This document shows positions 3,879 to 58,372 of a DNA stretch of 64,000 nucleotides, one piece after another. Under the pieces are notes generated by a model. It worked only from the letters and a program-made list of their open reading frames with translations. It was not told the DNA's origin and did not search any database. The stretch is from the NCBI GenBank assembly GCA_964503145.1, contig CAZCYV010000017.1, positions 16,718 to 80,717 on the forward strand, given 5' to 3'. Position 1 is the stretch's first letter; the number at the start of each line of letters is the position of its first letter. The translations under genes were made by a program, and so were the position numbers. This stretch comes from an uncultured Anaerolinea sp. Its GTDB lineage: Bacteria > Chloroflexota > Anaerolineae > Anaerolineales > UBA4823.

Positions 3879-5771
<1,893 letters not shown>

Positions 5772-37196: not shown

Positions 37197-37224
37197 TTGA
37201 TTTATCGCTGGAAAGTGGTAAAAT
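37197..37224 (+). promoter_or_regulatory. Sigma-70-type promoter of the tRNA-Arg gene
   Basis: TTGATT (37197-37202), a 16-nt spacer, then TGgTAAAAT (extended -10, 37216-37224). The tRNA 5' end is 24 nt downstream. Confidence 0.55.
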
Positions 37225-40675: not shown

Positions 40676-41482
40676 TTATTCGCCGGATCTATCGAAAATC
40701 CCTTTGCGGGAGGCGCGAATGAAGTTCATACAGTAGGCGTCTCGACCGAGCAGCAGTTCAGTGGTCAGAATGGCGGCCTGAATCTCACGGTCGAGCGGAT
40801 CCAAGATGGCGCTATCCAATCCATTCTGAATCGCCAGGCTCAGGAAGTAGCGATTGATAAAGGAGCGCGCCGGCAGGCCGAAAGAAATATTGCTCAGCCC
40901 GATCGTCAGGTGCGCCTGCGGGAACTCCTGACGCACCAGGCGCATGGTGTCGAAGGCGATCACGGCGCTCTGAGTGTTGGTGGAGATGGTCATCGCCAAG
41001 GGGTCGATGTACAGATGATCGTCCGGCACCCCCATCTGGCGCGCTTCTGCGACCACCTTGCAGATCACCTCGAAGCGTTTTTCGCTGGTCTCGGGGATCT
41101 TCTTCTCGTCCATCGCCAGGGCGATCACCGGACAACCATGTTCGGCGACGATCGGCAGGACATGGGTCAGCCGATCCGGCTCGCCGCTGATCGAATTGAT
41201 CATCGGCGTCTGCTTCACCGCTTCCACGGCGATTTTCAAAGCTTGCGGATTGGCGCTATCCAGACACAGAGGGGTGTCCACGACAGCCTGGATGGTATCG
41301 ATCAGCCAGAGCAGATCCTCCGGCTCCCGGCTGGGATGCGTGCCCGCGTTCACATCCAGCCAGGCCGCTCCGGCTTCGCTCTGCTTTTTGGCCAGGCCAG
41401 CAATGTAATCGGCGTCGCGCTCGGCGATGGCCTGGGCAACGCGCTTGCGAGTGCCATTGATTTTTTCTCCGATGATTTTCAT
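40676..41482 (-). CDS. Methyltetrahydrofolate:corrinoid methyltransferase (pterin-binding, MeTr/AcsE/MtgA-like), the candidate MT2
   Basis: 268 aa pterin-binding TIM barrel: IIGEKINGTRK, LDVNAG, PLCLDSANP, INSISGE, YIDPL and GLSNISFGLP. Confidence 0.85.
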   Translation of the reverse strand: MKIIGEKINGTRKRVAQAIAERDADYIAGLAKKQSEAGAAWLDVNAGTHPSREPEDLLWLIDTIQAVVDTPLCLDSANPQALKIAVEAVKQTPMINSISGEPDRLTHVLPIVAEHGCPVIALAMDEKKIPETSEKRFEVICKVVAEARQMGVPDDHLYIDPLAMTISTNTQSAVIAFDTMRLVRQEFPQAHLTIGLSNISFGLPARSFINRYFLSLAIQNGLDSAILDPLDREIQAAILTTELLLGRDAYCMNFIRASRKGIFDRSGE

Positions 41483-41488
41483 GCGACT

Positions 41489-43327
41489 TCAATTCTCCCT
41501 GGGTGGGAATAGCATTGCCAGCGCAAACTGGCGGCTGAAATTGGGATAGGTGGTCAATTCCAGGTAGCGTGTGCGGCGAGCGATTTCCTGGGCGCGCTGG
41601 CGGGCGGCGCGCGAGATCAGGATCCATTTCGCCCCCAACGCGGCGGCGTTGCCCACCTGGCGATAGCGGGCATTTGGCAGGTGAGGAAACAACCCCATGT
41701 CGATCGCATTCTGGATGTTCAGGAAAGAACCAAACGCTCCGGCGACGATCACCTGTTGCACCGCCTCTGGCGGCGTACCGGTGGTTTCCAGCAAAATGTT
41801 CAACCCTGCCTGGATGGCGCCTTTGGCAAGCTGTATCTCGTTGACATCCTCTTGGGTAATCGAGATATCCCGGCCGCTGCCGCTGCGTTTTGCGGGTACG
41901 AGCACAAATTCGAGCCCGTGATCGCCCTGGCGGATGCCATCGCGATCGCGTTGAAAGCGCCCTCGCGCGTTCAGGTATCCCGCCTTGTACAGTTCAGCCA
42001 CCGCATCCAGGATGCCCGAGCCGCATAGCCCTACGGCCGGCTGATCTTCCACAGTGGTCAACTCCGGGCCGCGAGCGCTGATGCGCACTTTCTCGATCGC
42101 CCCTGCAGCAGCGCGCATGCCATCCCGAATGTGAGCGCCCTCGAAAGCTGGACCCGAAGCGCAAGAGACCGCAGTCAGGAAGGGTTGCGCGGGCAGGCGC
42201 AGGCTGATCTCGGTATTAGTGCCGATGTCCAATCCCAGGGTTACCTGATCGCTCTGATCCAGGTCGCTCGCCAACACCATCGCCACATGGTCGGCGCCGA
42301 CGAATCCGCCAATGCTGGGCGGGATATGGATAGTTGCGCCGGGCGCCATCTCCAACCCAATCTCGCTGGCGGGCACATCCAGCGCCGAGGAGGCGGCCGC
42401 CACGTAGGGCGCAGTGGCGAGCTGGCGCACGGGGAATTGCAGCAACAGGTGGATCATCGCAGTATTGCCCACAATGCAGGCTTCTGCTACCTGCTCTCTG
42501 CTTGCGCCAGCCCGGCGCAGCAAGTCGCCAAGCATTTCGTCCAGCGCCTGGCGCACCTTTTCGGCCAGAAGTTGTCCGCCATTGGCATTGCGCACGACGT
42601 GGTTCAGGCGGCTGATCACATCCTCGCCGTAACTGATCTGCGGATTTGGCGCGCCGGCCGAGGCCAGATCGGCGCCTGTTTCCAGATCCACCAGGAAAGC
42701 GGCGATCTTGGTCGTCCCCAGGTCGATCGCCAGGCCGAGCGGCCTTTCGCCAGCTGGTCGCACGCCCAGGATCGCGCCATCGCGCACGAAGACGCTGGCG
42801 CGCCAGCCCGTCGAACGCAGCGCGCCCGGCAGGCTGCGGATCAGCGATGCGCTGGCCTGTAACCCGCTGAGGCCATACCGGCTTTCCAATTCATCTGTGA
42901 GGCGGGTCAGATCCGAGCGCACATCCTCTAGCTTCGGCGGTTCAAGCTCTACCGCATAAGCGCGCACCAGCGGATCGGGCGGCGCCGGGCGCAGGTTGCT
43001 TTCGACCTGCAATCGCTGGCCGGTAATCAGAGAATCTTTGGGGAGATGGAGTTTGACATCGCTCAAAACCCGGGCGCAACAGGCCAGCCGGTAACCGTTG
43101 AGCTGGTCGGCTTCGTCGAGCAAAAAGTTTTCGTCTGCATTCAGCGGGCTGACTTCCCCGGCAAGCAGCACCACCCGGCACTGCCCGCAATCCCCTTCAC
43201 CGCCGCAAGCCGAAGCCAGGTCGATGCCGGCCTGGCGGGCGGCATCCAGGATAGTCGCCCCCGCGGCCACCCGAACGCGTTTGCCCAGCGGCTGGAATTG
43301 AACCTGCAGCGTCTGCGGCGCGTCCAT
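41489..43327 (-). CDS. Reductive activator of corrinoid enzymes (RACE/RamA-like: N-terminal 2Fe-2S ferredoxin plus ASKHA ATPase)
   Basis: 612 aa with a plant-type ferredoxin motif (CGGEGDCGQCRV...YRLACCARV) followed by an actin/sugar-kinase-like fold (GLAIDLGTTKIAAFLVD, GLDIGTNTEI, LCGSGILDA). Confidence 0.85.
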   Translation of the reverse strand: MDAPQTLQVQFQPLGKRVRVAAGATILDAARQAGIDLASACGGEGDCGQCRVVLLAGEVSPLNADENFLLDEADQLNGYRLACCARVLSDVKLHLPKDSLITGQRLQVESNLRPAPPDPLVRAYAVELEPPKLEDVRSDLTRLTDELESRYGLSGLQASASLIRSLPGALRSTGWRASVFVRDGAILGVRPAGERPLGLAIDLGTTKIAAFLVDLETGADLASAGAPNPQISYGEDVISRLNHVVRNANGGQLLAEKVRQALDEMLGDLLRRAGASREQVAEACIVGNTAMIHLLLQFPVRQLATAPYVAAASSALDVPASEIGLEMAPGATIHIPPSIGGFVGADHVAMVLASDLDQSDQVTLGLDIGTNTEISLRLPAQPFLTAVSCASGPAFEGAHIRDGMRAAAGAIEKVRISARGPELTTVEDQPAVGLCGSGILDAVAELYKAGYLNARGRFQRDRDGIRQGDHGLEFVLVPAKRSGSGRDISITQEDVNEIQLAKGAIQAGLNILLETTGTPPEAVQQVIVAGAFGSFLNIQNAIDMGLFPHLPNARYRQVGNAAALGAKWILISRAARQRAQEIARRTRYLELTTYPNFSRQFALAMLFPPREN

Positions 43328-43329
43328 GG

Positions 43330-44043
43330 CTACGCAGCGGAGTTATCCGGGAAAAAGCTGGCGTTGCCTGTGCTGGCGCCAGCGGCGCGAAAATCCAGGT
43401 AACTGATGGTCTGCCCTGGCGGGACGACTAGAAAATCATCGTCCCAGGGGCCGGTGAGCAACTTCAAGACCAGGGCGTTCGAGCCAGGGATCTCCTCGAA
43501 GCGCAGGTTGAACTTCTCCGCCGTCTTGCGCGCGTAATCCACATAGGCCTGCTTATCGCCGCGACCTGTATCGATGTACACCAGCCGGGTGTAGTTCTTG
43601 AGCATGGCGTGCATGATCCAATCGGCGCGTTCCTGACCGTATTGAGCCACCAGGCGCTCATATTCGTCGAACGGCGTGTCGGCGACTTCGATCCAACCTT
43701 TGGTCAGGTAATAGGTGCCAGGTTCTTTCCTTGACTGCTCAGAATAAGCCTCTCGGGAACCCAGGAATATGGCAATGCAATCGTCCACCCGCGGGATGAC
43801 CAATGTACAGTTGTTGGCCTTCAGGCCAATCACCGCCATGGAACACAGCCCATAGCCCAAAAGCAGGGTATCAAAAGAATCGCAGGAAGCGTCCACTGCT
43901 TCCTGCAATTTTTCCTTCAGAGTTCCTGGAGAGAGGTGAAGGCCGAAGTCCAGCACCTGGTAAGCCATGCCTTCGGGCATGAAGGGCAGCATCTCTTCGA
44001 TCACCGTAGCGCAGGCGATAATTTTTGTGCGGTCTGGGTTCAT
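43330..44043 (-). CDS. DUF1638 domain protein
   Basis: 237 aa. The pattern KIIACATVIEEM...LLLGYGLCS...IPRVDDCIAIFLGS...YYLTKGW matches what I recall of DUF1638, a family seen next to corrinoid methyltransferase genes. Its stop is 2 nt from the RACE start. Confidence 0.75.
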   Translation of the reverse strand: MNPDRTKIIACATVIEEMLPFMPEGMAYQVLDFGLHLSPGTLKEKLQEAVDASCDSFDTLLLGYGLCSMAVIGLKANNCTLVIPRVDDCIAIFLGSREAYSEQSRKEPGTYYLTKGWIEVADTPFDEYERLVAQYGQERADWIMHAMLKNYTRLVYIDTGRGDKQAYVDYARKTAEKFNLRFEEIPGSNALVLKLLTGPWDDDFLVVPPGQTISYLDFRAAGASTGNASFFPDNSAA

Positions 44044-44051
44044 CCTATTAA

Positions 44052-44091
44052 CCTATATAGTTATATAGGGAAGTCAGGAATATAGTATAAT
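44052..44091. promoter_or_regulatory. AT-rich divergent control region with an inverted repeat, a candidate GntR operator
   Basis: CCTATATA-GT-TATATAGG is a perfect 8-bp inverted repeat at 44052-44069. A further ATATAG lies at 44080-44085 and TATAAT at 44086-44091. The region sits between divergent DUF1638 and gntR genes in an otherwise GC-rich sequence. Confidence 0.45.
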
Positions 44092-44137
44092 ATGTCTGCG
44101 CAATAATTGTCAAGGCCAAAGCCACCCTGGCGATCTT

Positions 44138-44905
44138 ATGACACTCGGAAGGCGAAGTACCACAAAAAACGCGTATCAGATTGATCGCGACTCTTTCGAA
44201 CCCGCCTATCTACAACTGGCGAATATCTTACGCCGCCAGATTGCTGAGGGCGTCTTTCGGCCAGGCGATCAACTCCCTTCAGAAGCGCAGTTGGTCAGCC
44301 GTTATGGCGTCAGCCCGATGACGGTGCGCCGTTCGATCAATCTGCTGGCAGATCAGGGCGTGGTGAGCACTGCTCAGGGACGCGGCACCTTCGTCAAGGC
44401 GCTGGAGCTGAGCACGGCAATCTTCGACCTGCAAGACCTGGCCGATCTGTTTAAGGACGCCCCCGAAGACAGCATCCGGCTGCTGGATGTGCGCGTGGTC
44501 TCTGCAGACGAACGCACGGCGCGCAAGCTCGACCTGAAACCCGGCGATCCGGCGATCTACATCCGCCGCCTGTTCACCCGCGAGGATCTGCCGATCTTCT
44601 ATCATCGCGCCTATCTGATTTATGATCCCACCCGCCCCATCGTCGAGGCCGAGATGGACGTGACCTCTCTTCAAGGCCTGTTCACCAATGCGAACAACAG
44701 CCTGCTCAAATGCGGTCACTTGAAGATCGAAGCCACTCTGATGACCGAAGAAGAGGCCCGGCTGCTCAAGAAACCTCTGCCGGCGGCCGCGTTTCTCCTG
44801 GAGCACGTTTTCTTCGACTTCGACGGCCGGCCGATCAGTTGGGGCTGGTTCATTTTCCCGGGAGATCGCCTGCGCTTTCAGACCAAAGTGGGGATCGACG
44901 CCTAA
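44138..44905 (+). CDS. GntR family transcriptional regulator (HutC subfamily, UTRA effector domain)
   Basis: 255 aa with a winged HTH (LPSEAQLVSRYGVSPMTVRRSINLLADQGVVSTAQGRGTFV) and a UTRA-like C-terminal domain. Confidence 0.9.
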   Translation: MTLGRRSTTKNAYQIDRDSFEPAYLQLANILRRQIAEGVFRPGDQLPSEAQLVSRYGVSPMTVRRSINLLADQGVVSTAQGRGTFVKALELSTAIFDLQDLADLFKDAPEDSIRLLDVRVVSADERTARKLDLKPGDPAIYIRRLFTREDLPIFYHRAYLIYDPTRPIVEAEMDVTSLQGLFTNANNSLLKCGHLKIEATLMTEEEARLLKKPLPAAAFLLEHVFFDFDGRPISWGWFIFPGDRLRFQTKVGIDA

Positions 44906-44937
44906 ACCTTTCACCCTGCGACTTCGAAAAGGCAACT

Positions 44938-45609
44938 ATGGAACGACCTTTGAATGATAACGATCTCAGCAGCCAGCTCATTCGCTATGTGGCCGACTTG
45001 AAAGAGCAGGAAGCTCTGGCGCTGGTGCGGGAGCGGGTGGCTCAAAACGACGATCCGTTGTTGCTGGTGGAAAATTGCCAGGAAGGGTTGCGCATCGTCG
45101 GCGAACGCTATGAGCGCCAGGAGTACTATCTTTCTGGTCTGATTATGGCCGGAGAAATCTTCCGCGAGGTCATGGAAATCCTGGCCCCGATCATCGAGGG
45201 GCGCTTTTCGGGCAGCGAAAGCGGGGTCATCCTGCTGGGCACCGTGGAAGGGGATATCCACGACATCGGCAAGAACAACCTGAGCCTGCTGCTGACCTGT
45301 TACGGCTTTACTGTGAACGACCTGGGGGTAGATGTGCCTCCTGGGGAGTTTTTGTCTCAGGCGATGCAGCTCAAACCGGATATCATCGGCCTTTCCGGCC
45401 TGCTGACCAGTTCATACGATAGTATGCGCGCCACCGTGCAGTTACTGCGCTCGGCTTCGGATCACAGCGTCGCTGCCATCCCAATCGTCATCGGCGGCAA
45501 CCAACTCAACGAACAGGTATGCCAGTATGTGGGCGCTGACGCCTGGGTGACAGATGCCATGTCGGGTGTGCGCCTGTTCCAGAAGCTGATCGCTCAGCGG
45601 CAACAATAG
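44938..45609 (+). CDS. Second corrinoid (cobalamin-binding) protein
   Basis: Start moved to ATG 44938 (MERPLNDND). Cap domain plus B12-binding domain with the canonical GTVEGDIHDIGKN (DxHxxG), GLSGLLT and VIGGNQ. It lies 32 nt downstream of gntR on the same strand. Confidence 0.9.
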   Translation: MERPLNDNDLSSQLIRYVADLKEQEALALVRERVAQNDDPLLLVENCQEGLRIVGERYERQEYYLSGLIMAGEIFREVMEILAPIIEGRFSGSESGVILLGTVEGDIHDIGKNNLSLLLTCYGFTVNDLGVDVPPGEFLSQAMQLKPDIIGLSGLLTSSYDSMRATVQLLRSASDHSVAAIPIVIGGNQLNEQVCQYVGADAWVTDAMSGVRLFQKLIAQRQQ

Positions 45610-45810
45610 ACCGCGCATGACGGAAATTCGGTGAGTCTGGCCAACGGCGACAGCATCGAATCCCCCGGCTCCGCAGCGCGCACCTCAGGGTGAGCCTATC
45701 AGAAGGGTCTGCCGCTGCAACAGCCTGGATTTCGCCGATCCCTCGGCCCAGAAGGGCACAGCCAGGGTTCACAAGAAGTTGGGGGTAGCCCCTTTCACCA
45801 ACACATTTCC

Positions 45811-45838
45811 TTGACTCCGGCAAATGTTGTGGTAAAAT
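45811..45838 (+). promoter_or_regulatory. Strong sigma-70-type promoter candidate about 330 nt upstream of glpF
   Basis: TTGACT (45811-45816), a 16-nt spacer, then TGgTAAAAT (45830-45838). Architecture and the GTGGTAAAAT 10-mer are the same as in the tRNA-Arg promoter at 37197-37224. Confidence 0.5.
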
Positions 45839-45965
45839 CTGCCTGACAATAAACTTGCATTACTGTAAGGATGAGGCCGTCGTATGCTTGGTGATCGAAC
45901 TCGTCTGTGCAGGATTTCAAATTGGGTATCAGTCAGGGAATGGCCCTGGCTTGTCTCTCTAGAAA

Positions 45966-46005
45966 GGCTATCTTTGGACATTCACGTCCAGGGGTAGCTT
46001 TTTTT
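45966..46005 (+). terminator. Intrinsic terminator/attenuator inside the glpF leader
   Basis: 14-bp stem GGCUAUCUUUGGAC (45966-45979) / GUCCAGGGGUAGCU (45986-45999), including several G-U pairs, with loop AUUCAC, followed by U6 (46000-46005). Confidence 0.55.
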
Positions 46006-46167
46006 GTCGGAAGGGTATCCCGATCAATCTGCCTGATCATGGGTATCTGGATCCGTTTCAGGAGGTGCGCTCGAACAAAAGACAATCCTAGTTTCTAACC
46101 TGCCCCCTAACTATTCTATTTCTATCCCCTGTAATTCCAAATCCAGTGATCGAAGGAGAGTGATCGA

Positions 46168-46962
46168 ATGAAATCGAAAGGCTTGACCGCAGAATTGATC
46201 GGAGAGGTGTTCGGCACCTTCATCCTGATCCTGTTGGGCGACGGCGTAGTGGCGAACGTGGGCCTTGCGCCGCGCCTGGCCGCACCCGCGTATAACTGGA
46301 ACACCATTACCTTCGGTTGGGCGTTCGCGGTTATCGTGGCAGTGTACGTGTCGGCGGGCGTCTCCGGGGCTCATCTGAACCCGGCCGTGACCCTGGCCCT
46401 GGCCGTGAAGCGCGGCTTCCCGTGGGGCAAAGTTCTGCCCTATATGGTGGCGCAGGTCTTTGGTTGCTTCCTGGGCGCTGCGGGCGTGTACCTGGCCTAT
46501 GGAGATGGTCTGCGCGCCGCGGGTATGCCCAACGTCTGGTGCACCGGCCCTGGCTCGGTCTTCGCTTCCGCTTTCTGGGGCGGCGCTGCCGGCTCGGCCA
46601 TTGGCCCTTACTCGCTGACAGGGGCGATCCTGACCGAAATCCTGGGCACCGCAGTGTTGTTGTGGGGCGTCCTGGCCAGCGGCGACTCGCGCAACATCGG
46701 CCTGATGCACAACTTGGGCCCCTTCCTGGTCGGCGGCACCGTTCTGGCAGTCGGCCTCTCCCTGGGCGGCCCGAGCGGTTACGCGATCAACCCCGCCCGC
46801 GACCTGGGTCCGCGCCTCTTTGGGACGCTGGTTGGAACGAAAGGCCTGTTCGATGGCCTCTACTGGTTGGTGGCGCCGATCATCTCCACTCTCATCGGCG
46901 GTTTGGTGGGTGTGTTCACTTACGACTGGTTCATCACAAGCGGACTGCCGGAGAAAAAGTAA
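46168..46962 (+). CDS. glpF: Glycerol uptake facilitator (aquaglyceroporin)
   Basis: 264 aa MIP-family protein with both NPA boxes (SGAHLNPAVTLA, GYAINPARDLGPR). GGAG RBS upstream. Confidence 0.93.
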   Translation: MKSKGLTAELIGEVFGTFILILLGDGVVANVGLAPRLAAPAYNWNTITFGWAFAVIVAVYVSAGVSGAHLNPAVTLALAVKRGFPWGKVLPYMVAQVFGCFLGAAGVYLAYGDGLRAAGMPNVWCTGPGSVFASAFWGGAAGSAIGPYSLTGAILTEILGTAVLLWGVLASGDSRNIGLMHNLGPFLVGGTVLAVGLSLGGPSGYAINPARDLGPRLFGTLVGTKGLFDGLYWLVAPIISTLIGGLVGVFTYDWFITSGLPEKK

Positions 46963-47030
46963 GTCAGGCTTTTCTGCAACTCACGAGATGAGCCAGGATC
47001 AGCGGTCCGTTAGGAGAAGGATAAAGCTCG

Positions 47031-48032
<1,002 letters not shown>

Positions 48033-48097
48033 TCACTTAACATCAGGGGCCAGGTCTTCCCCTGGCCCCAATCTTGCCATCTGGATCAAGAGACAAT

Positions 48098-48733
48098 ATG
48101 CCAATTTCTCGCGATGACACCTTGAATTGGATCAAGACCTGCGCCGACGTCCTGGCAGAGAATCGCGACTACCTGACTCAGCTCGACGCGGCGATCGGCG
48201 ACGCAGACCACGGCGCCAACATGGACCGCGGCTTCAAAGCGTTCATGAACAAAATGCCGGAGGTCGCCGATAAAGACATCGGTACCATCCTCAAGACCCT
48301 CGGAATGACGCTGATATCCACCGTGGGTGGAGCTGGCGGCCCGCTTTACGGGACTTTCTTCTTGCAAGCTGGCATGAAATCTGCCAACAAGATGGAGTTG
48401 ACCCTGGAGGATTGGGTGGCAGCGATGGACGCCGCCCTGGCAGGCGTGATCATGCGCGGCAAGGCAGAGCTGGGAGACAAGACCATGGTCGACGCGCTAA
48501 CTCCGGCTCTGAATGCCCTGAAGCAGGCCAGCCTGAACGGCGCGTCGATTGGAAAGGCCTTGCAGCTATCGGCCGAAGCAGCCCGAGAGGGCATGGAGGG
48601 GACGATTCCGCTGGTCGCCCGAAAAGGCCGGGCGAGCTACCTGGGCGAACGTAGCGCAGGACACCAGGACCCCGGAGCAACCTCATCATACCTGATCCTG
48701 AAAGCAGCTGCCGATACGTGGGCAGACAAGTAA
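48098..48733 (+). CDS. dhaL: Dihydroxyacetone kinase, ADP-binding DhaL subunit
   Basis: Start at ATG 48098. Motifs are LTQLDAAIGDADHGANMDRGF, GGAGGPLYGTFF, GDKTMVDAL and ARKGRASYLGERS. Confidence 0.93.
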   Translation: MPISRDDTLNWIKTCADVLAENRDYLTQLDAAIGDADHGANMDRGFKAFMNKMPEVADKDIGTILKTLGMTLISTVGGAGGPLYGTFFLQAGMKSANKMELTLEDWVAAMDAALAGVIMRGKAELGDKTMVDALTPALNALKQASLNGASIGKALQLSAEAAREGMEGTIPLVARKGRASYLGERSAGHQDPGATSSYLILKAAADTWADK

Positions 48734-48775
48734 CCTCATATCTGTACGAAACCAACTTTTGAAGGAGATAAGACT

Positions 48776-50275
48776 ATGGCTAAGTACGCAGCAGCAGTCG
48801 ATCAAGGGACTACCAGCACCCGCTTCATGATCTTTGATCACAGCGGCAAGGTTGTCTCGGTAGCACAGAAAGAACACGAGCAGATCTACCCGAAGCCTGG
48901 GTGGGTCGAGCACGATCCAATGGAAATCTGGGCCCGCACCCAGGAAGTGATTAAAGAGGCGCTGGCCAAGGCGAACGTCGACCCCAAGGACATCGCCGCT
49001 GTGGGCGTCACCAACCAACGCGAGACGACCGTTATATGGGAAAAGGCGACTGGCAAGCCGGTTTACAACGCCATTGTCTGGCAGGATACGCGCACCGACA
49101 GGATCTGCAATGACCTGGCTAAGGATGGCGGTCAGGATCGCTTCCGCCCCAAAGTTGGCCTGCCTCTGGCGACCTACTTCTCTGGCCCGAAGATCAAGTG
49201 GGTCCTGGATAACATCGAGGGCGTGCGCGAGAAGGCGGAAAAAGGTGAGGTGTTGTTCGGCAACATCGACACCTGGGTGATCTGGAATCTGACCGGCGGG
49301 CCCAATGGCGGCGTGCATGTGACCGATGTCTCCAACGCCTCCCGCACCATGCTGATGAACCTGGAAACACTCGACTGGGATCCAGAAATCTTGCAGCTTA
49401 TGGGTGTGCCCCGCGCCATGCTGCCGGCGGTCCGCGCCTCCAGCGAAGTGTACGGCACTGCGGTGGGCGATCTGGCAGGCGTTCCCGTAGCCGGCGACCT
49501 GGGCGACCAGCAGGCGGCGCTCTTTGGGCAGACCTGCTTCAGCGTCGGCGAGGCCAAGAACACCTATGGCACCGGCTGCTTCATGCTGCTCAACACCGGC
49601 ACCAACGCAGTCCAATCCAAGAACGGCCTGCTGACCACGCTGGCCTACAAGATCGGCAGCCAGCCGGCGGTCTATGCCCTGGAAGGCTCCATCGCCATCA
49701 CCGGCGCTCTGGTGCAGTGGCTGCGCGACAACATGGGCCTGGTCGAGAAGTCGGCGGATGTCGAAGCGCTGGCCAACACCGTGGAAGATAACGGCGGCAT
49801 CTACTTCGTACCCGCCTTCTCCGGTCTGTTCGCCCCCTACTGGAAGAGCGACGCCCGCGGCGTGATCGTTGGCCTGACCCGCTACGTCAACAAGGGCCAT
49901 ATCGCCCGCGCTGCCCTGGAAGCCACCGCTTACCAGACTCGCGAAGTCCTGGACGCGATGAATAAGGACTCGGGCGTCAACCTGACCGCCCTGAAGGTCG
50001 ATGGCGGCATGGTGTACAACGACACCCTGATGCAATTCCAGGCCGACATCCTGGGCGTGCCGGTCGTTCGCCCCACCGTTGCCGAAACGACCTCGCTGGG
50101 CGCGGCTTACGCCGCCGGCCTGGCCGTGGGCTTCTGGAAAGAGGTGGAAGACCTGCGCGAGAATTGGGGCAAGGATAAAGAGTGGCTGCCCAAGATGGAT
50201 GCGGAACACCGCGAAAAGCTGTACAAAGGCTGGCTTAAGGCGGTCACCCGCACCTTCGACTGGGTCGAACAATAA
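48776..50275 (+). CDS. glpK: Glycerol kinase
   Basis: 499 aa with [39 protein letters not shown] and [20 protein letters not shown]. Confidence 0.97.
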
Positions 50276-50291
50276 TCGGCGAGCGGTATCG

Positions 50292-50324
50292 GATCAGAGG
50301 GGGAGCTGGTTTACCCCTCTGATC
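50292..50324 (+). terminator. Hairpin after glpK (possible terminator or processing site, no U-tract)
   Basis: Perfect 11-bp stem GATCAGAGGGG (50292-50302) / CCCCTCTGATC (50314-50324). It is followed by tgatgg, not a T-run. Confidence 0.4.
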
Positions 50325-50458
50325 TGATGGAACCCGCCTCGCCCGGCATCCAGGCGACATACCTGCGATGACCCAGGTATGTCGCCTGGTACTTCTAACA
50401 CATGATCTGGTTACCGCTTTCAACGAATTCGATGATATTGGTGGTGAATGGTGAGTTC

Positions 50459-50728
50459 ATGACAAAGCAGACAAAAAAATCCTCCGATCATCCAAAAGAG
50501 AAACGCATAAAGCTGCCCTCGCAACCCGCTGGCGCGTGGATTTCCATGAGAACAGGGATCATCGTGATCAGCATTGTCAGCCTGGGGATGGCTGTGCTTA
50601 CAGCCTGGCAGGCTGTGCCAATCAAGGGTTGGCTCGAGGGGATCCTATGGGGATTGTTGTTCGGCGGCTCGATCTGGGTCATCTTTCTGGGTTTTCTGCT
50701 CTACGGTCGGCTGTTCCGAAAAGGTTGA
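50459..50728 (+). CDS. Small hypothetical membrane protein (two TM helices)
   Basis: Likely start is ATG 50459 (MTKQTKKSSDHPKEKR), followed by two hydrophobic helices. No family recognised. It sits inside the glycerol cluster. Confidence 0.4.
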   Translation: MTKQTKKSSDHPKEKRIKLPSQPAGAWISMRTGIIVISIVSLGMAVLTAWQAVPIKGWLEGILWGLLFGGSIWVIFLGFLLYGRLFRKG

Positions 50729-50757
50729 CCACTCCAAGCCGACCTTCCTAAAGGGCG

Positions 50758-51351
50758 ATGGCAATGGATGCCATTCAGGATAAGCTCGATCGTTGGGAAG
50801 CGTCCTGGGCGGCTTACGACGAGGCGACTTACCAGGATGTTCTGGCAGCTATTGGCCGCCAGGATATCGTCTATGAGATCGGCGCCGGCGACTTGCGCCT
50901 GGCCCGGCGCATGGCGGCAATCGCCAGGCGCGTCTACGCCATAGAAATCCAAGAACCTTTGTTGGCGCAAGCCTGTCGCTCGCAAGAGCCGCTCCCCGCT
51001 AACCTGATCATCCAATGCGGGGATGCCCGGAGGATGCCAGTGCCGACAGGCACGACGGTGGGTGTGCTGCTGATGCGCCATTGCACACATTTCCAGCTTT
51101 ATGCTCAGAAATTAAAGCTGGCCGGCGCTCATACCTTGATCACGAACGCCCGCTGGAAGATGGCTGTGGAACGGGTGCTGCTCCAGCAGCGACGTCTGCT
51201 CTATCAGGACATAGACATGGGATGGTATGCCTGCTGGTGCGGCGCGGTTGGATTCAAGCCCGGGCCGGCAGAAAGGTTAACTCCAGAGTTGGAGGCTGCC
51301 GTTTACGAAGTTCAGGATTGCCCGCAGTGCTCCAACGCCTTGAGAAAATAG
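50758..51351 (+). CDS. Class I SAM-dependent methyltransferase-like protein with a C-terminal Cys4 cluster
   Basis: 197 aa with motif I-like VYEIGAGDLRLA and a post-I acidic residue (YAIEIQ). The C-terminal CWCG...CPQC suggests a zinc ribbon. Function unknown. Confidence 0.55.
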   Translation: MAMDAIQDKLDRWEASWAAYDEATYQDVLAAIGRQDIVYEIGAGDLRLARRMAAIARRVYAIEIQEPLLAQACRSQEPLPANLIIQCGDARRMPVPTGTTVGVLLMRHCTHFQLYAQKLKLAGAHTLITNARWKMAVERVLLQQRRLLYQDIDMGWYACWCGAVGFKPGPAERLTPELEAAVYEVQDCPQCSNALRK

Positions 51352-51416
51352 GTTAAAATTTATTTTGGCGTACATTTGTGCAACCTTGATTAGCTTGAAA
51401 ACGGAAGTGACAAAAA

Positions 51417-52586
51417 ATGACCAAACCACATGTGATCATCATCGGCGCAGGGTTCACCGGGGTTGCCACAGCCCACGACCTGGCCCTGCGCGGCTTTGAC
51501 GTCACCGTCGTCGAGCGTGGGCCGATTGCGAACGGCACTTCAGGCCGGACCCACGGCCTGCTGCACAGCGGCGGTCGCTACGCCGTTAAGGACAAAGAAT
51601 CGGCTGTCGAATGCATCGAGGAAAACATGATCTTGCGCAAGATCGTCCCCAATGTCATCGAGCCGAACGGCGGTTTGTTCATCGCCCTGACAGAGAGCGA
51701 CCTGGCTTACGGCGAGGATTTCATCGAAGGCTGCCAGGAGTGTAACATCCCCATCGAAGAATTGACCCCCAAGCAGGCTTTGGAACTGGAGCCTAACCTG
51801 AACCCGAAGCTGCTTTCGGCCTTCATCATACCCGACGGCACGTTTGATCCTTTGCGCCTGGCGCTCTCCTTTGCCGCCACCGCCAAATCCAACGGCGCCC
51901 GCTTTCGACTGTACACCGAAGTGGAACAAATGATCCTGGACGGGAAGGGCAACGTCGTCGGGGTAAAGATCTGGGATCGCAAAACCGGCCAACGCGGCGA
52001 GATTCGCGCAGATCTTGTGGTCAATGCCACCGGCGCCTGGGCAGGGGAGATCGCAGCCATGGCTGGCGGTTCAGTGCCGATCAAGCCAACGCCCGGAATC
52101 ATGGTCGCCTATGACCAGCGTCTGGCCCAACGGGCGATCAACCGCCTCTGCCCGCCCAGCGATGGCGATATCATCCTGCCTCAGCGGCGGATGATGGTCG
52201 TTGGCACGACCTCCTATGAAGTGGACAACCTGGATTACGTGCCCGTGATCGAAGAGCAGATCGAGATGATGCTCGAGCGCGGCGCCGAAATGGTGCCCGG
52301 CATCCGCCAGGCCAAAGTGCGCGGCGTGTACACTGCGACCCGTCCGCTGATCGGCGCTGGCTCCACCGGGCGCAGCATTGCGCGCACGTTCAAGTGCTTC
52401 GACCACAAGGAATCTGACAATGTCGATGGCCTGATCACCATCACCGGCGGCAAGGCCACCACCTTGCGGGCAATGGCAGAGAAAACCGCGGACATGGCTT
52501 GCGCTAAGCTGGGCGTCTCTGCACCATGCATGACCAAAGAAGTCCCGCTCATCAGCTATCGCCAATTCTATGCTCTACCCGACTAG
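51417..52586 (+). CDS. glpA: FAD-dependent glycerol-3-phosphate dehydrogenase, GlpA-like flavoprotein (short form)
   Basis: 389 aa with the dinucleotide fold VIIIGAGFTGVATAHDLALRG. GRTHGLLHSGGRYAVKD and ITITGGKATTLRAMAE are colinear with E. coli GlpA residues ~1-400 as I recall them. It ends where GlpA's C-terminal BFD-like domain would begin. Confidence 0.82.
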   Translation: MTKPHVIIIGAGFTGVATAHDLALRGFDVTVVERGPIANGTSGRTHGLLHSGGRYAVKDKESAVECIEENMILRKIVPNVIEPNGGLFIALTESDLAYGEDFIEGCQECNIPIEELTPKQALELEPNLNPKLLSAFIIPDGTFDPLRLALSFAATAKSNGARFRLYTEVEQMILDGKGNVVGVKIWDRKTGQRGEIRADLVVNATGAWAGEIAAMAGGSVPIKPTPGIMVAYDQRLAQRAINRLCPPSDGDIILPQRRMMVVGTTSYEVDNLDYVPVIEEQIEMMLERGAEMVPGIRQAKVRGVYTATRPLIGAGSTGRSIARTFKCFDHKESDNVDGLITITGGKATTLRAMAEKTADMACAKLGVSAPCMTKEVPLISYRQFYALPD

Positions 52587-52595
52587 AGAGGCCTT

Positions 52596-53324
52596 ATGAT
52601 CAACAACTGGACGGTTACTTTCCTGGTTTACCGGCAAAAGGGCGAAGAGCCAGGACATTTCGACAGCTTCAAAGTGGATGTCAACCCAGATGAGTACGTC
52701 CTGGATGCCATCGAGCGCATCTGGGCCTTCCAGGACCGTTCGCTCACCTTTGCCCATGCCTGCCACCACTCGACCTGCGGCGCGTGCGGTATGCGGGTCA
52801 ACGGTGTAGAAAAACTGACCTGCATCACCCCAATCCGCAGCGTTACCGAAAACGGCGGCACGATCCAGGTCGAGCCGATGCGCAATTTTCCGGTAGTAAG
52901 CGACCTGGTGGTGGATCTCGGCGTGATGTTCCGCCGCATGGAGGCCGTAGGCCACCGGCCAGTGCTGCCGCTGGCGGAGGAACCTGCTCCCACATCGGGC
53001 AACCCGCCCAGGCCGGAAGACATGCAGATCATCCGGCTGGCCGATTGCATCGAATGCGGGCTGTGCATCAGCGCCTGTCCCATAGCGCTGACCACTCCGA
53101 CCTATTTGGGGCCGGCGGTCCTGGCCGGAGCGCAGCAGCACGGTCTGGATGGCAACCGCTCCCTGCTGGCGCTCGTGGATAGCCAGGATGGCGTGTGGCG
53201 TTGCCACAGCGCATTCGAGTGCAGCGCCGTCTGCCCTTCCAATGTTGACCCGGCGCGCCGGATCATGGACCTGCGCAAACAGGTCATCCGCGCTCGGATC
53301 ATGAGTTTCTTCCGCCGGGATTGA
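52596..53324 (+). CDS. Succinate dehydrogenase/fumarate reductase-type iron-sulfur subunit (SdhB-like)
   Basis: 242 aa with all three Cys clusters intact: CHHSTCGACGMRVNGVEKLTC (2Fe-2S), CIECGLCISACP and CHSAFECSAVCP (4Fe-4S and 3Fe-4S). Confidence 0.88.
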   Translation: MINNWTVTFLVYRQKGEEPGHFDSFKVDVNPDEYVLDAIERIWAFQDRSLTFAHACHHSTCGACGMRVNGVEKLTCITPIRSVTENGGTIQVEPMRNFPVVSDLVVDLGVMFRRMEAVGHRPVLPLAEEPAPTSGNPPRPEDMQIIRLADCIECGLCISACPIALTTPTYLGPAVLAGAQQHGLDGNRSLLALVDSQDGVWRCHSAFECSAVCPSNVDPARRIMDLRKQVIRARIMSFFRRD

Positions 53325-53343
53325 TTGAGAAAAGGAACCCATC

Positions 53344-53736
53344 ATGAGCAATCCACGAAACACACCCACACCCTCTAACTGGCTTAAGTGGTTCGACCCT
53401 CGAGGGCGCAATATCGGCACCTATGCTTTCATCCTGAACCGGATCACCGCAATAGGGCTGACATTCTATTTGTTTCTCCATTTGATAGTGCTTGGTCAAC
53501 TGGCAAAGGGGCCTGAAGGCTATGACAACTTCCTCAGGATGATCGACAGCCCGCTATATCTTTTCGGTGAGTTATTGGTCATCGCCGCGGTGCTGATCCA
53601 CGGTCTGAATGGTATTCGCGTCGCCCTGACCAGTTTTGGCATCGGCGTGAACGCCCAGAAACAAGCCTTTTACGCCGTGATGGTGGTGGCGATCGTCGGC
53701 AGTCTGATCTTCGCCGTGCGCATGATCATCGGCTAG
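53344..53736 (+). CDS. SdhC-like membrane anchor (cytochrome b subunit type)
   Basis: 130 aa with three TM helices. FILNRITAIGLTFYLFLHL and LIHGLNGIRV resemble SdhC heme/quinone-site helices. Confidence 0.7.
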   Translation: MSNPRNTPTPSNWLKWFDPRGRNIGTYAFILNRITAIGLTFYLFLHLIVLGQLAKGPEGYDNFLRMIDSPLYLFGELLVIAAVLIHGLNGIRVALTSFGIGVNAQKQAFYAVMVVAIVGSLIFAVRMIIG

Positions 53737-53771
53737 CTCCGAGTTGCCTTGAAAACATGAAGGAATGAGCT

Positions 53772-54146
53772 ATGACAAACATGACTTCAGAACGACCCTC
53801 TAGCGAGAGCGGCTGGCTCTGGCTGTTCAAAATTGTTTCGGGGCTGTTGCTCGTCTTGATCCTGTTGATCCATCTGATCGTCAATCACATGCTGGGCACA
53901 GAGGGCGGTTTGCTCACCTTTGCCGAGGTGGTCAAGTACTATCAGAACCCGATCATCCCCATTATGGAAGGCGCCTTCCTGATCTTTGTCGTCTCCCATT
54001 CGCTGATTGGACTGCGGAGCATCATCCTGGATCTCAACCCATCGCCAAAGGTCTTGAGCGGCGTCACCTGGGTGTTGACCGGCGTGGGCGCAGTTTCCAT
54101 CATCTACGGCATCTGGCTGCTCCTGGCGATCGTCGCCCAGGGTTGA
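53772..54146 (+). CDS. SdhD-like membrane anchor subunit
   Basis: 124 aa with three TM helices and conserved-looking His residues (LILLIHLIVNHM, VVSHSLIGLRSIILD). It directly follows the SdhC-like gene. Confidence 0.6.
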   Translation: MTNMTSERPSSESGWLWLFKIVSGLLLVLILLIHLIVNHMLGTEGGLLTFAEVVKYYQNPIIPIMEGAFLIFVVSHSLIGLRSIILDLNPSPKVLSGVTWVLTGVGAVSIIYGIWLLLAIVAQG

Positions 54147-54175
54147 CCCGCTCCACAGTTAGAGACAACTGATCG

Positions 54176-56710
54176 ATGGTTGGGTTAGTGATCGTATCGC
54201 ACAGCCGGGCTCTGGGAGAAGCGCTGGCCGGTTTAGTCGGCCAGATCGCTTCTCAAGGGGTCCCTATCGCCGTCGCAGGAGGGGTAGGCCCAGACCGTCA
54301 GGAGTTTGGGACCGACGCGGTAGAGATCATGGAAGCCATCCAGTCGGTGGACGGCCCCGATGGGGTGGTCGTGTTGATGGACCTGGGCAGCGCTGTGCTC
54401 AGCGCAGAAATGGCCTTGGAATTCTTACCGCCGGAAACCGCGGAAAGGGTCTCGCTTTGCGCCGCGCCGCTGGTCGAAGGCGCCATTGCGGCTGGGGTTC
54501 AGGCCAGTTTGGGGATGGATCGAGAAACAATCTGCAAAGAGGCGATGACCGCCCTGCTGCCGAAGACGGATCACCTGTTGCCAGGCGCAGAAACAGCCCA
54601 GCCAGTGGCGGAAGCGGTGAGCGCGCTGCAACAGGTCGAAGAACGCGTGGTGTTGACTCTGCACAACCTGCACGGGTTACACGCCCGCCCGGCGGCGCGC
54701 TTCGTGCAGACCGCGGCGAGCTTCCCCGCCGATATCCGCGTCCGGAACCTGACGACCGGAAAAGGCCCGGTCACGGCGAAGAGCCTGAACGCCCTGGTGA
54801 CATTGGGCGCGGTGAAAGATCACCAGATCGAGATCACCGCCAGCGGCCCGCAATCGGAGCAAGCCATCCAGGCGCTGCAAAAGCTGGTGGAAGACAGCTT
54901 CGGCGAGGCAATAGAACCTGCTCCCCCACGACCGGAGCGCATCAGGCCGACCGAAGGCGCGGCGGGCTCGCAGCCAGCCGTCCCGGTATCTGACGGCGTT
55001 GCCCTGGGGCCGTTCTTTCGTTTCCAGGCTCCCCCGCCGCCGGTAGTGGAAGGCAAGACCGACCACCCCGAACAGGACTGGGAGCAGTTGCAGCGCGCCC
55101 TGGAAACGACTCGCCTGGCCATTCGCCAGCGCCAGGGGCTGCTAGCAGCAACCTTGGGGCCAGAAGAAACGGCGATATTCGACGCCCATTTGCTCATTCT
55201 GCAAGACCCAGACCTGCTCGAAGCGGTCAAAGAGCGCATCCTGGTTCAGGGCGAGAATGCCGCCTGGGCCTGGCAGACCTGCATCCATTCGGTCGCGTCC
55301 ACTTATCAGGGGCTTGACGACCCCTATTTCCAGCAGCGCGCCATTGATGTGCTCGATGTGGGCAACCAGGTGCTGTTCGCCCTGGCAGGCAAAGCGCCCG
55401 CTGCAGAAATCCAGCTCTCGCAGCCGGTGGTCTTGTTCGCCGAAGACCTGACCCCCACAGAAACCGCCCAATTGGACATGAACCAGGTGTTGGGGATCAT
55501 CACGGTGGGTGGGGGGCCCACATCTCACAGCGCTATCCTGGCGCGCTCGTTGGGCATACCGGCCGTCTCTGGAGCCAGCCCCAATCTTGAAAGGGTGCAA
55601 GATGGCACGCTGGTAGGGGTGGATGGCGCCCGAGGGGCAATTTGGGTCGAGCCTGCGCCGGAGGTGCAGGAAGAATTGAAACAGCGCCGCGAGAAATGGC
55701 TCAGCGAGCGACAACGCTTGCAGAAGGTCAGCCATGCGTTGGCAATGACCCGTGACGGCCGACGCGTCGAAATCGTTGCCAACGTAGGGAACATCCTGGA
55801 TGCGAAGGCAGGATTACAAAACGGCGCTGAAGGCATTGGCTTGCTGCGAACTGAGTTTCTATACCTGACTCGCGAGACGGCGCCTGAGGAGGACGAGCAG
55901 GCTCATTCGCTAAGGCAGATCGCTGAAGCGCTGGCAGAAGATGGAAATCAAAACCGGCCGATCGTCGTGCGCACGATGGACATCGGCGGTGATAAAGCGC
56001 TGCCCTACCTGCCAATGCCGCCAGAAGCCAATCCCTTCCTGGGTGTGCGGGCGTTGCGGCTTTCCCTGCGCAATCCAGAGATTTTCTCCTCGCAGCTCAA
56101 AGCCATCCTCAGGGCGGGGTTGGGCTTCAATTTCAAAGTGATGTTTCCAATGGTTGCCAACCTGGACGAAGTTCGGCAAGCCAGACAATGGCTGGAAAAG
56201 GCCCACCAGGAATTGGCGGATAAGAACATCCCCCATATCTGGCCGATTGAAACCGGCATCATGGTCGAGATCCCTTCCGCAGCCCTGATCAGCAACGTGT
56301 TAGCGCCGAACGTCGATTTCTTCAGCATCGGCACCAATGATCTGACCCAGTACACCCTGGCGGCCGAGCGGGGAAACCCGGCGCTTTCGGGCTTCGCGGA
56401 TGGATTGCACCCAGCCGTTTTGCGGCTGATCCAGATGGTGACAGATTCCGCTCACAAACACGGCAAATGGGTGGGCGTCTGTGGAGAACTGGCTGGCGAC
56501 CCCCTGGCAGGGCCGATCTTAGTGGGACTGGGCGTGGATGAGCTGAGCATGAACCCGGGCAGCATCCCTCGGATGAAAGAAATCCTGCGGAAGATCGACC
56601 TGGCAGAGGCTCAATCGCTGGCCCGGTCGGCGCTAGAAATGGTGGACGCGGCTCAGGTTCGCCAGATGGCGCGCAAATTTGCTGAAGACAAGTTACTCGA
56701 GCTACTGTGA
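54176..56710 (+). CDS. dhaM: Multidomain phosphotransfer protein: DhaM (EIIA-Man-like), HPr-like and full-length Enzyme I (PtsI)
   Basis: 844 aa. N-terminal EIIA-like domain GLVIVSHSRALGE...LMDLGSAV, HPr-like domain LHNLHGLHARPAARFV, and EI with the phospho-His region GGPTSHSAILARSLGIPAV. The C-terminal PEP-binding barrel has IGTNDLTQYTLA and CGELAGDP. Confidence 0.9.
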   Translation: MVGLVIVSHSRALGEALAGLVGQIASQGVPIAVAGGVGPDRQEFGTDAVEIMEAIQSVDGPDGVVVLMDLGSAVLSAEMALEFLPPETAERVSLCAAPLVEGAIAAGVQASLGMDRETICKEAMTALLPKTDHLLPGAETAQPVAEAVSALQQVEERVVLTLHNLHGLHARPAARFVQTAASFPADIRVRNLTTGKGPVTAKSLNALVTLGAVKDHQIEITASGPQSEQAIQALQKLVEDSFGEAIEPAPPRPERIRPTEGAAGSQPAVPVSDGVALGPFFRFQAPPPPVVEGKTDHPEQDWEQLQRALETTRLAIRQRQGLLAATLGPEETAIFDAHLLILQDPDLLEAVKERILVQGENAAWAWQTCIHSVASTYQGLDDPYFQQRAIDVLDVGNQVLFALAGKAPAAEIQLSQPVVLFAEDLTPTETAQLDMNQVLGIITVGGGPTSHSAILARSLGIPAVSGASPNLERVQDGTLVGVDGARGAIWVEPAPEVQEELKQRREKWLSERQRLQKVSHALAMTRDGRRVEIVANVGNILDAKAGLQNGAEGIGLLRTEFLYLTRETAPEEDEQAHSLRQIAEALAEDGNQNRPIVVRTMDIGGDKALPYLPMPPEANPFLGVRALRLSLRNPEIFSSQLKAILRAGLGFNFKVMFPMVANLDEVRQARQWLEKAHQELADKNIPHIWPIETGIMVEIPSAALISNVLAPNVDFFSIGTNDLTQYTLAAERGNPALSGFADGLHPAVLRLIQMVTDSAHKHGKWVGVCGELAGDPLAGPILVGLGVDELSMNPGSIPRMKEILRKIDLAEAQSLARSALEMVDAAQVRQMARKFAEDKLLELL

Positions 56711-58287: not shown

Positions 58288-58372
58288 GGGGCGTATTGTA
58301 GTCCTTTTTCGGAGCAGGAGCAATGCCGCCCGACCGCTTTTAACGCTGCGCTTATGTCACCCAACAGAATTG

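Follow-up and report, generated by a model that had tools for sequence, protein, structure and literature searches.

The 64,000-nucleotide (nt) stretch of DNA that was analysed, here called the window, is part of contig CAZCYV010000017.1 of an uncultured Anaerolinea sp., and its GlpF sequence places it within the Anaerolineae (Chloroflexota). All coordinates refer to positions in this window. The study concerns the 560-bp leader that separates the gene of a B12-binding (corrinoid) protein from glpF, the first gene of a putative operon for the catabolism of glycerol and dihydroxyacetone. This leader is probably a ribosome-mediated attenuator in which a translated leader peptide would gate the glycerol operon, a reading that is supported by comparative statistics. 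It contains the following features:

45610-46167: intergenic gap, from the B12-binding protein gene (stop ending at 45609) to glpF (ATG at 46168)
45811-45838, + strand: sigma-70-type promoter identified by consensus scan, with TTGACT at 45811-45816, a 16-nt spacer and TAAAAT at 45833-45838
45863-45912, + strand: hairpin P1, 5' arm CTGTAAGGATGAG, 3' arm CTCGTCTGTGCAG
45884-45997, + strand: upstream open reading frame (uORF) taken from the list of open reading frames (ORFs), 37 codons, ATG at 45884, GGATGAGG 7 nt upstream
45932-45950, + strand: hairpin P2, inside the uORF, GTCAGGG / AATGG / CCCTGGC
45966-46005, + strand: intrinsic terminator, 14-bp stem with three G·U pairs, 6-nt loop, run of seven T (T7)
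46008-46055, + strand: hairpin P3, CGGA-GGGTATCC-GATCA / loop ATCTGCC / TGATC-GGGTATCT-TCCG
46060-46075, + strand: box AGGAGG (46060-46065) resembling a Shine-Dalgarno (SD) sequence, then TCGAA (46071-46075), invariant in 11 of 11 clade sequences
46131-46167, + strand: conserved block GTAATTCCAAATCCA (46131-46145) and SD of glpF AAGGAGAG (46153-46160), from alignments A1 and A2

The leader promoter is of the extended -10 type (TGgTAAAAT, with the TG at 45830-31) and reaches a score of 10/12 in the consensus scan. From this element, transcription would start near 45845, about 7 nt past the end of the -10 region at 45838. The original prediction, a note made earlier from the letters of this DNA, had placed the same TTGACT-N16-TGgTAAAAT element at this position and had pointed out its likeness to the promoter of a tRNA-Arg gene at 37197-37224, and we recover both, with GTGGTAAAAT and the spacing common to the two promoters. 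Among the relatives described below, a TTGAC-N-TGGTAAAAT promoter is kept in every case where the leader is of full length. The tRNA-Arg gene with its near-identical extended -10 promoter is located 8.5 kb 5' of the leader, and tRNA genes are also found at most 1-1.5 kb upstream of the glpF leader on three related contigs (L163, 1521-1594; L165, 1523-1596; L171, 643-715).

The uORF contains three Trp codons at 45923-25, 45941-43 and 45947-49 (codons 14, 20 and 22) and ends with a TAG at 45995-97, which falls within the 3' arm of the terminator. The hairpin of the latter (45966-45999) has the sequence GGCTATCTTTGGAC / ATTCAC / GTCCAGGGGTAGCT and is followed by the T7 run ending at 46005. Both elements had been noticed before, the hairpin by its 14-bp stem and its U-run, here defined as T7, and the 37-codon ORF by the SD 7 nt upstream of its start and by its TAG in the terminator stem, and both are present as described. 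In contrast, the statement that there is no credible ORF in the region has to be withdrawn, since the 37-codon ORF belongs to a class of uORFs with a clear coding signature. This Trp-rich uORF is the key feature of the leader and was undervalued in the original prediction.

The closer relatives of this locus, whose GlpF proteins are 80-98% identical, are found on metagenome contigs and were compared in alignments A1-A3. About eight related lineages within this range of identity have kept the promoter, P1, the uORF, the terminator and P3. The gene sets on the 5' side vary by lineage and comprise a GntR regulator and a corrinoid protein (window, L161, L162), SurE (L163-L168, L175) or other genes (L171). 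Since the leader is kept while the upstream genes differ, the unit travels with glpF and not with its upstream neighbour. An equivalent uORF is present in all members of the clade, and at least one Trp is kept in each of the peptides listed here:

window: MLGDRTRLCRISNWVSVREWPWLVSLERLSLDIHVQG
L161: MIGDRTRLCRISNCVSAREWPWLVSLE
L163: MIGTQARLCRSTNKFWFGGWFLFELLRVAIFGQ
L165: MFGAQTRLCRSSNRFSSRGWFGFELLRVAIFGP
L171: MQARLCRFPNWFVSGLDPGL

The putative transcript of 166 nt has a predicted folding energy of -63 kcal/mol, which is far below that of shuffled sequences (z = -5.0). Within this fold, the 5' arm of P1 carries the SD of the uORF (GGATGAGG, 45869-45876), the ATG sits in the loop and the 3' arm CTCGTCTGTGCAG constitutes codons 6-10. 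P1 folds alike in every relative and is conserved as AACTGTAAGGATGAG ... CTCGTCTGTGCAG. Across relatives, 97% of its cells are paired and 10 of its 12 pairs are invariant, three G·U pairs among them, an invariance that reads as a double constraint on pairing and on either SD or coding function. The codons for the residues RLCR show two substitutions, both of which are synonymous (CGT to CGC and AGG to AGA) and one of which breaks a pair of P1.

The terminator is paired in 100% of cells across relatives. Its 5' arm GCTATCTTTGGAC is invariant save for one change in L161, and its 3' arm shows solely G·U/A-U/G-C transitions that keep the pairing, with 8 of 13 pairs varying, on one side only. When applied to the whole leader, RNAalifold recovers the terminator alone, because the contigs of many relatives end inside the leader. 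A simple terminator scan fails to report the hairpin at 45966-46005, in our reading because its stem can extend via an upstream A-run into the T-run, so that the tail is left with too few T. Hence, where a hairpin is flanked by an A-run, its absence from the output of such a scan is not reliable.

Beyond this clade, the similarity resides in the arrangement of the leader and not in its sequence. The best GlpF matches in species-representative genomes are 70-82% identical, and no blastn similarity to the leader DNA was found in these 80 loci. Equally, nhmmer profiles of the leader match the close clade alone and none of the other approximately 150 glpF loci. By primary sequence, the leaders are divided among 39 clusters that are unrelated to each other. 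On the strand of glpF and 100-280 nt ahead of the gene, a hairpin with a T-run was detected in 72 of 129 loci, compared to 19/129 in reverse-complement controls and 14/129 in coding sequence. The terminator-bearing loci include those of the cultured Thermanaerothrix daxensis, T. solaris and Bellilinea caldifistulae, and the commonest words upstream of the leader hairpins are TTGACA/TTGACT and TACAAT.

The leaders also share the uORF, defined by an ATG start, a length of at least 18 codons and a stop that lies at most 12 nt ahead of the hairpin or anywhere within it. Such an ORF is present in 35 of 63 leaders, compared to 11.5±2.9 upon shuffling of the pre-terminator part, and in 22 of the 39 cluster representatives, compared to 6.9±2.4 in shuffled sequences (maximum 15 in 300 shuffles). 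Since all of these uORFs are closed by an in-frame stop at most 95 codons upstream, none of them is the tail of a gene. Their composition is distinctive, with TGG found 38 times in frame and 12 times in each of the two other frames, and accounting for 5.7% of uORF codons as opposed to 1.9% in shuffled ORFs. Relative to off-frame translations, Trp is enriched about 3-fold and Met 2.3-fold, with every other residue at or below 1.5-fold. Similarly, the Trp content is 5.5% in the uORFs of glpF leaders and 1.7% in uORF-like frames that end elsewhere in these loci, at other terminator-like sites. By eye, Trp frequently follows Ser or Asn in the middle of the peptide (ISNWVS in the window, QGSWVM, IASWPL, GGSWPI, QASWLS and QNSWLN elsewhere), and the Ser of this motif is encoded by both AGT and TCC.

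In four clusters comprising 13 loci (Thermanaerothrix-type, Bellilinea-type and two further types), a TTGACN-N17-TACAAT promoter ends exactly 8 nt before the ATG, which implies that the uORF is leaderless or nearly so. Its length in these clusters is confined to 39-42 codons despite a DNA identity of 62-77%. In T. daxensis, a gene for a DhaR-like protein with GAF-PAS-sigma54 AAA-HTH domain order is followed by a TTGACA-N17-TACAAT promoter, roughly 110 nt of leader, the terminator, a further 130 nt or so, and glpF. A DhaR-like gene (GAF/PAS, sigma-54 AAA, HTH_8) is located directly 5' of the leader in more distant Anaerolineae (L176, L179 and L025, 1650-3635), and the window clade carries no such gene at that position. 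In lineages with a DhaR-like gene the attenuator would be a second layer over promoter control.

In the mechanism that we envisage, a ribosome would load on the uORF at the SD contained in the 5' arm of P1 and start at the ATG at 45884. As P1 would pair the SD with codons 6-10, initiation on the uORF would be a kinetic competition. Translation would then run into the intrinsic terminator, where a ribosome keeping pace with RNA polymerase would sit on the last codons and cover the 5' arm, so that the hairpin would be blocked and the polymerase would continue through a structured 160-nt spacer into glpF-dhaKL-glpK...dhaM. If the uORF were untranslated or if the ribosome lagged behind, the hairpin would form and a transcript of about 160 nt would be released. 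The in-frame Trp codons would be the likely point of modulation, either by the supply of Trp-tRNA or by contacts of the nascent peptide with the exit tunnel. They are located upstream of the occlusion zone, and slow decoding or nascent-chain effects would thus favour termination unless the arrest occurs late. Both the direction of the switch and the signal that it would sense are inferred.

To model the geometry, a ribosome footprint was imposed at each codon of ten leaders and the probability of terminator formation was computed. The probability is at least 0.7 at every stall position until the ribosome reaches the last 6-12 codons, at which point it falls to about 0, and this holds for 10 of 10 leaders. 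Direct occlusion by a late ribosome, the one arrangement that works in silico, would be the simplest model. Folds of the nascent RNA prior to synthesis of the 3' arm show no consistent rise in the pairing of the 5' arm with a ribosome placed at the Trp codons. An in silico search for an alternative antiterminator, as suggested in the original prediction, has yielded a single and weak candidate, the 5' arm of P2, which is a look-alike of the terminator 3' arm and could pair with the terminator 5' arm. This alternative is paired in 76% of cells, compared to 40-55% in slid controls, and the energies of the duplexes are no better than those of shuffles in 6 of 8 lineages. P2 itself is 79% paired across relatives and weak in half of the clade. 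On account of these duplex energies, the modest pair counts and the lack of any dependence on stalling, an antiterminator of the trp type was rejected.

Several observations weigh against a translated attenuator. The footprint folds did not reveal a stall-dependent antiterminator as found in trp, and the alternative based on P2 is weak. Physiologically, tryptophan is not linked to the catabolism of glycerol in any obvious way, and Pfam identifies no tryptophan-related gene in the glpF-dhaKL-glpK-...-dhaM operon. The peptide is poorly conserved, and close pairs differ, as judged by eye, mostly by amino-acid-changing substitutions. L171 and L117 have lost the usual ATG and instead have an in-frame ATG three codons downstream with a poor SD, and L161 lacks Trp14 while it retains Trp20 and Trp22. 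The other frames of the window leader are also fairly open. At the level of the entire set, 17 of 39 leader types lack an ATG-initiated uORF by the criteria used, although some of them contain candidates starting with GTG or TTG. Stops in terminator loops originate in part from GNRA-like loops (GUGA, GUAA). For that reason we have given a stop codon in the loop little weight as evidence for coding. That the uORF is translated and that the hairpin terminates transcription are both predictions from sequence. Finally, the attenuator model leaves the conserved part that follows the terminator, with P3 and the AGGAGG box, unexplained.

In this region, P3 forms in all eight relatives whose sequences reach that far (z = -1.9 to -4.4), with stems that differ and a TCTGCC loop (46028-46033) that stays the same. 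The loop sequence UCUGCC is by eye complementary to GCAGA in codons 8-9 of glpF (ACC GCA GAA, 46189-46195), and a contact between the loop and the glpF coding region is possible. The AGGAGG box, a perfect SD-like sequence, is not followed by a usable start codon in the window. In 31 of 39 leader types, compared to 1.2±1.1 in shuffled sequences, an AGGAGG precedes glpF by 64-140 nt, and a start codon is found 4-12 nt past the box in just 6 of these 31 (background 32%). A small ORF behind the box was considered and rejected, as it lacks a consistent start codon. The box takes the form (A)AAGGAGG(TG), for example at about 3910-3920 of L025, and is followed in several lineages by (T)ATCGAA. Further downstream, TCAAATCC recurs in additional leader types. 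In the Thermanaerothrix and Bellilinea groups, the DNA following the terminator is 74-89% identical, compared to 62-77% for the uORF. In alignments A1 and A2, the AGGAGG box and the glpF SD of one sub-lineage (L171 at about 1150-1300, L117, L083) are separated by some 110 additional nt, and the leader thus tolerates a much longer spacer there. The region as a whole could stabilise the mRNA, provide a standby site for ribosomes or constitute a second point of control. With respect to the first of these roles, STAB-SD elements, 5' mRNA stabilisers known from cryIIIA of Bacillus thuringiensis and from B. subtilis, consist of a perfect SD in the 5' untranslated region with no start codon behind it. 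The AGGAGG box resembles these elements in its lack of a start codon but differs from them in its location 64-140 nt upstream of glpF, past a terminator and a hairpin, and the comparison is limited to the box and does not extend to the attenuator.

In a variant of ribosome-mediated control, the leader peptide would be a metabolite-sensing arrest peptide, which would keep the ribosome in place over the terminator 5' arm and in this way switch the glycerol operon on. We regard this as doubtful. Such a peptide would respond within the exit tunnel to glycerol, dihydroxyacetone, glycerol-3-phosphate or another small molecule. It would correspond, in these bacteria, to TnaC or to the uORF of sucrose control in plants, while acting on an intrinsic and not on a Rho-dependent terminator, and it would be widespread in Anaerolineae. 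A fixed spacing between Trp and stop, as would be expected for a TnaC-like peptide, was looked for and rejected, as the distances are broadly distributed between 5 and 26 codons and favour 12 only mildly.

It is unlikely that the uORF is incidental and that the operon is instead controlled by antitermination of the kind mediated by GlpP in Bacillus, where an RNA-binding protein, perhaps loaded with glycerol-3-phosphate, would act on P1 or on the 5' arm of the terminator. Terminators in the leaders of glp genes are a hallmark of GlpP (PMC9604022), the near-invariance of P1 and of the terminator 5' arm amid diverging surroundings is as expected for a protein-binding site, and the fact that a ribosome-dependent antiterminator structure was not found points in the same direction. 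However, Pfam scanning of the 64-kb window, which covered about 45 ORFs with all neighbours of the operon among them, has produced no match to GlpP (PF04309), ANTAR, PRD/CAT, CsrA, Hfq or any other RNA-binding regulator, in accordance with the earlier remark that no GlpP gene is visible. Control by a protein would also leave unexplained the frame-specific Trp codons, the location of the ATG 8 nt after the -10 box and the stop at the terminator, and the leader sequences are wholly different between lineages, hence no common binding site is apparent.

We consider it improbable, to a higher degree, that the region harbours an independent gene for a small RNA or a small protein with its own promoter and terminator, and that glpF is transcribed from a separate promoter further downstream. 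The unit from promoter to terminator is self-contained with a length of about 160 nt, the region behind the terminator is separately conserved and the DhaR-like activator located upstream in some lineages implies control at the level of the promoter. In contrast, inspection of the DNA between terminator and glpF, in the clade as well as in other lineages, has not revealed a conserved element of the -35/-10 or sigma-54 kind, and a second promoter of the sigma-70 or sigma-54 type was thus dismissed. Moreover, the unit is always found directly upstream of glpF and in the same orientation, the peptides change faster than would be compatible with a functional small protein, and three frames are read across one terminator stem in related lineages. 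A free-standing small RNA is possible only as a by-product that would equal the terminated leader transcript.

A metabolite-binding riboswitch, in which P1, P2 and their junction would form the aptamer for a metabolite derived from glycerol and would control the terminator, is very unlikely. It would be in line with a fold that is far better than that of shuffles (z = -5), with the invariant blocks of sequence and with the position upstream of an operon for transport and catabolism. However, covariation is not seen in P1, half of the clade has a weak P2, and the frame-specific TGG points to coding. Other Anaerolineae share neither sequence nor fold ahead of the terminator and have solely the arrangement of uORF and terminator in common. 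In a covariance search of the window with Rfam 15, only tRNA reaches the gathering score and nothing between 45500 and 46300 is better than E = 4.9 (cutoff E at most 10), with no family match in the leader. The same search on 18 related loci has identified tRNAs as the sole matches. A known RNA family, be it a riboswitch, a T-box or a protein-binding leader, was accordingly excluded up to E 10.

The original prediction had also called attention to five copies of GGGTA(T/G)C at 45783, 45924, 45992, 46013 and 46041, all of which are present on the + strand. The motif occurs 17 times on both strands of the whole window, compared to 9.35 expected, and with 5 of 17 copies within 265 bp of the 64 kb there is a real local excess. 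Conservation of the motif upstream of glpF in related genomes, on which the original prediction had made its attenuator depend, is not observed: only the 46013 copy survives in L161 and L162, whose GlpF is 98% identical, none is found in the remaining clade leaders, and none of the 80 distant loci contains a cluster upstream of glpF, with four of them harbouring one isolated copy, in one case on the opposite strand. Three of the copies are accounted for as arms of helices. Those at 46013 (GGGTATCC) and 46041 (GGGTATCT) face each other in the middle helix of P3, where the nearly palindromic sequence forms a self-complementary stem with the aid of G·U pairs, and the one at 45992 is part of the 3' arm of the terminator, where it forms G·U pairs with GCTATCTTT in this genome alone, with AGATAG(C/T) found in all relatives. 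The comparison thus indicates that the copies are neither functional nor a conserved motif, and that they would be sites for a DNA- or RNA-binding regulator is, despite the local excess, extremely improbable.

The proposal of an attenuator gating the glycerol operon stands in its outline, since a leader with a terminator is conserved despite different upstream genes and is general before glpF in Anaerolineae, whereas the repeats, a GlpP-type protein among the 45 or so ORFs scanned and a known RNA family are not supported as its components.

The genes downstream of the leader form a putative operon, glpF-dhaK-dhaL-glpK...dhaM, at 46168-56710 on the + strand, which was assigned from Pfam matches. 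Their orientation and spacing suggest that the genes from glpF to dhaM constitute a single transcription unit:

47031-48032, + strand: dhaK
48074-48733, + strand: dhaL
48776-50275, + strand: glpK
between glpK and the DAO-type dehydrogenase, + strand: two small genes
between the small genes and dhaM, + strand: DAO-type dehydrogenase, with Fe-S and cytochrome-b subunits
54176-56710, + strand: dhaM (EIIA-HPr-EI fusion)

Two candidate assignments in this part of the window, an ANTAR domain in the response regulator at 57661-58323 and a function for the ORF at 50402-50728, were dropped as they have no support from Pfam. On the 5' side of the leader, a cluster of the corrinoid methyltransferase type extends from 41489 to 45609 with a RACo-like reductive activator, a DUF1638 protein, a GntR/UTRA regulator and the B12-binding protein, and it also includes the gene of a pterin-binding protein at 40676-41482. 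The B12-binding protein starts at 44710 in the ORF list (299 codons, overlapping the GntR gene), and its start is called at about 44938 (223 amino acids) on identical contigs. The window further includes dnaA (1823-3181, - strand) and dnaK (3879-5771); based on the presence of dnaA it is probably located near the chromosomal origin of replication. No convincing case of a further leader with uORF and terminator was found elsewhere in the 64 kb. About 42 of 160 glpF contigs end at most 480 bp upstream of the gene, which is far above uniform placement (L082-L160, L002, L003, L014), and the contigs of the first five relatives of the window leader are each cut within the leader at differing points. 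This suggests that assemblies break at the leader, via a strain-variable upstream context or via hairpins.

To our knowledge, gene regulation in Chloroflexota (Anaerolineae) is almost unstudied. Full-text searches of the literature have found no leader peptide or attenuator upstream of glpF in this phylum, and no leader-peptide attenuator of glycerol or dihydroxyacetone genes in any phylum. The arrangement of uORF and terminator would thus be new for glycerol genes, although leader-peptide attenuation itself is already known. A Trp-rich uORF ahead of a carbon-catabolic operon breaks the usual match between regulatory codons and the product of the pathway. This mismatch points either to a coupling of carbon uptake to the status of translation or amino acids, or to a new ligand-sensing nascent peptide. 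Since the arrangement is found in the cultured strains Thermanaerothrix daxensis GNS-1 and Bellilinea caldifistulae GOMI-1, it is directly testable, and its leaderless versions offer a compact and portable module of promoter, uORF and terminator.

Among systems that control glycerol genes, the glpFK, glpD and glpTQ leaders of Bacillus subtilis are subject to antitermination by GlpP and glycerol-3-phosphate (PMC9604022). They share with the leader described here the promoter-proximal intrinsic terminator before glycerol genes and differ from it by the absence of a GlpP gene from the window, by the conserved uORF and by the lack of any sequence similarity. RNA thermometers have been described in glycerol permease genes of Bacillus (PMC10573289). 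With respect to the uORF, the Thermanaerothrix- and Bellilinea-type leaders resemble the attenuators with leaderless polycysteine uORFs reported for mycobacteria (10.1101/834739) in being leaderless and rich in a single residue. They differ in that this residue is Trp instead of Cys and that the operon is functionally unrelated to it, and the uORF of the window clade is instead led by an SD. Another likeness is found in TnaC of the tnaCAB operon, a Trp-sensing arrest peptide (PMC8429421, PMC8450073), which is reported to be a short leader peptide with a conserved Trp ahead of a catabolic operon, whose ribosome, when held at the end of the uORF, prevents termination. TnaC is reported to block Rho-dependent termination and to have a fixed W12...D16...P24-stop spacing, whereas the terminator found here is intrinsic, the distance from Trp to stop ranges from 5 to 26 codons and the C-terminal residues are read in three frames over the same stem across lineages.

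Parallels in organisation are also offered by the attenuators of amino acid operons in Enterobacteria, trpL, hisL, leuL, pheL, thrL and ilvL, where a leader ORF and an intrinsic terminator also precede the first structural gene. In both cases the codons of one amino acid are enriched in frame, here those of Trp, which are sometimes found in tandem, and the position of the ribosome decides on the terminator. The operon studied here is however catabolic for glycerol and dihydroxyacetone instead of biosynthetic for Trp, and its uORF runs into the terminator instead of ending ahead of a 2:3 antiterminator. Since no stall-dependent antiterminator is apparent, a stall at Trp would favour termination, with a polarity opposite to that of trp. 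A related arrangement is that of pyrBI of E. coli. There, the leader ORF spans the attenuator hairpin, a closely following ribosome blocks the terminator and the signal is provided by UTP-dependent pausing of the polymerase. The glpF leader differs from this system in that its conserved feature is the Trp codons and that no pause signal is known, but it shares with pyrBI a uORF extending into the terminator and, in the model proposed here, a physical block of the hairpin by the translating ribosome.

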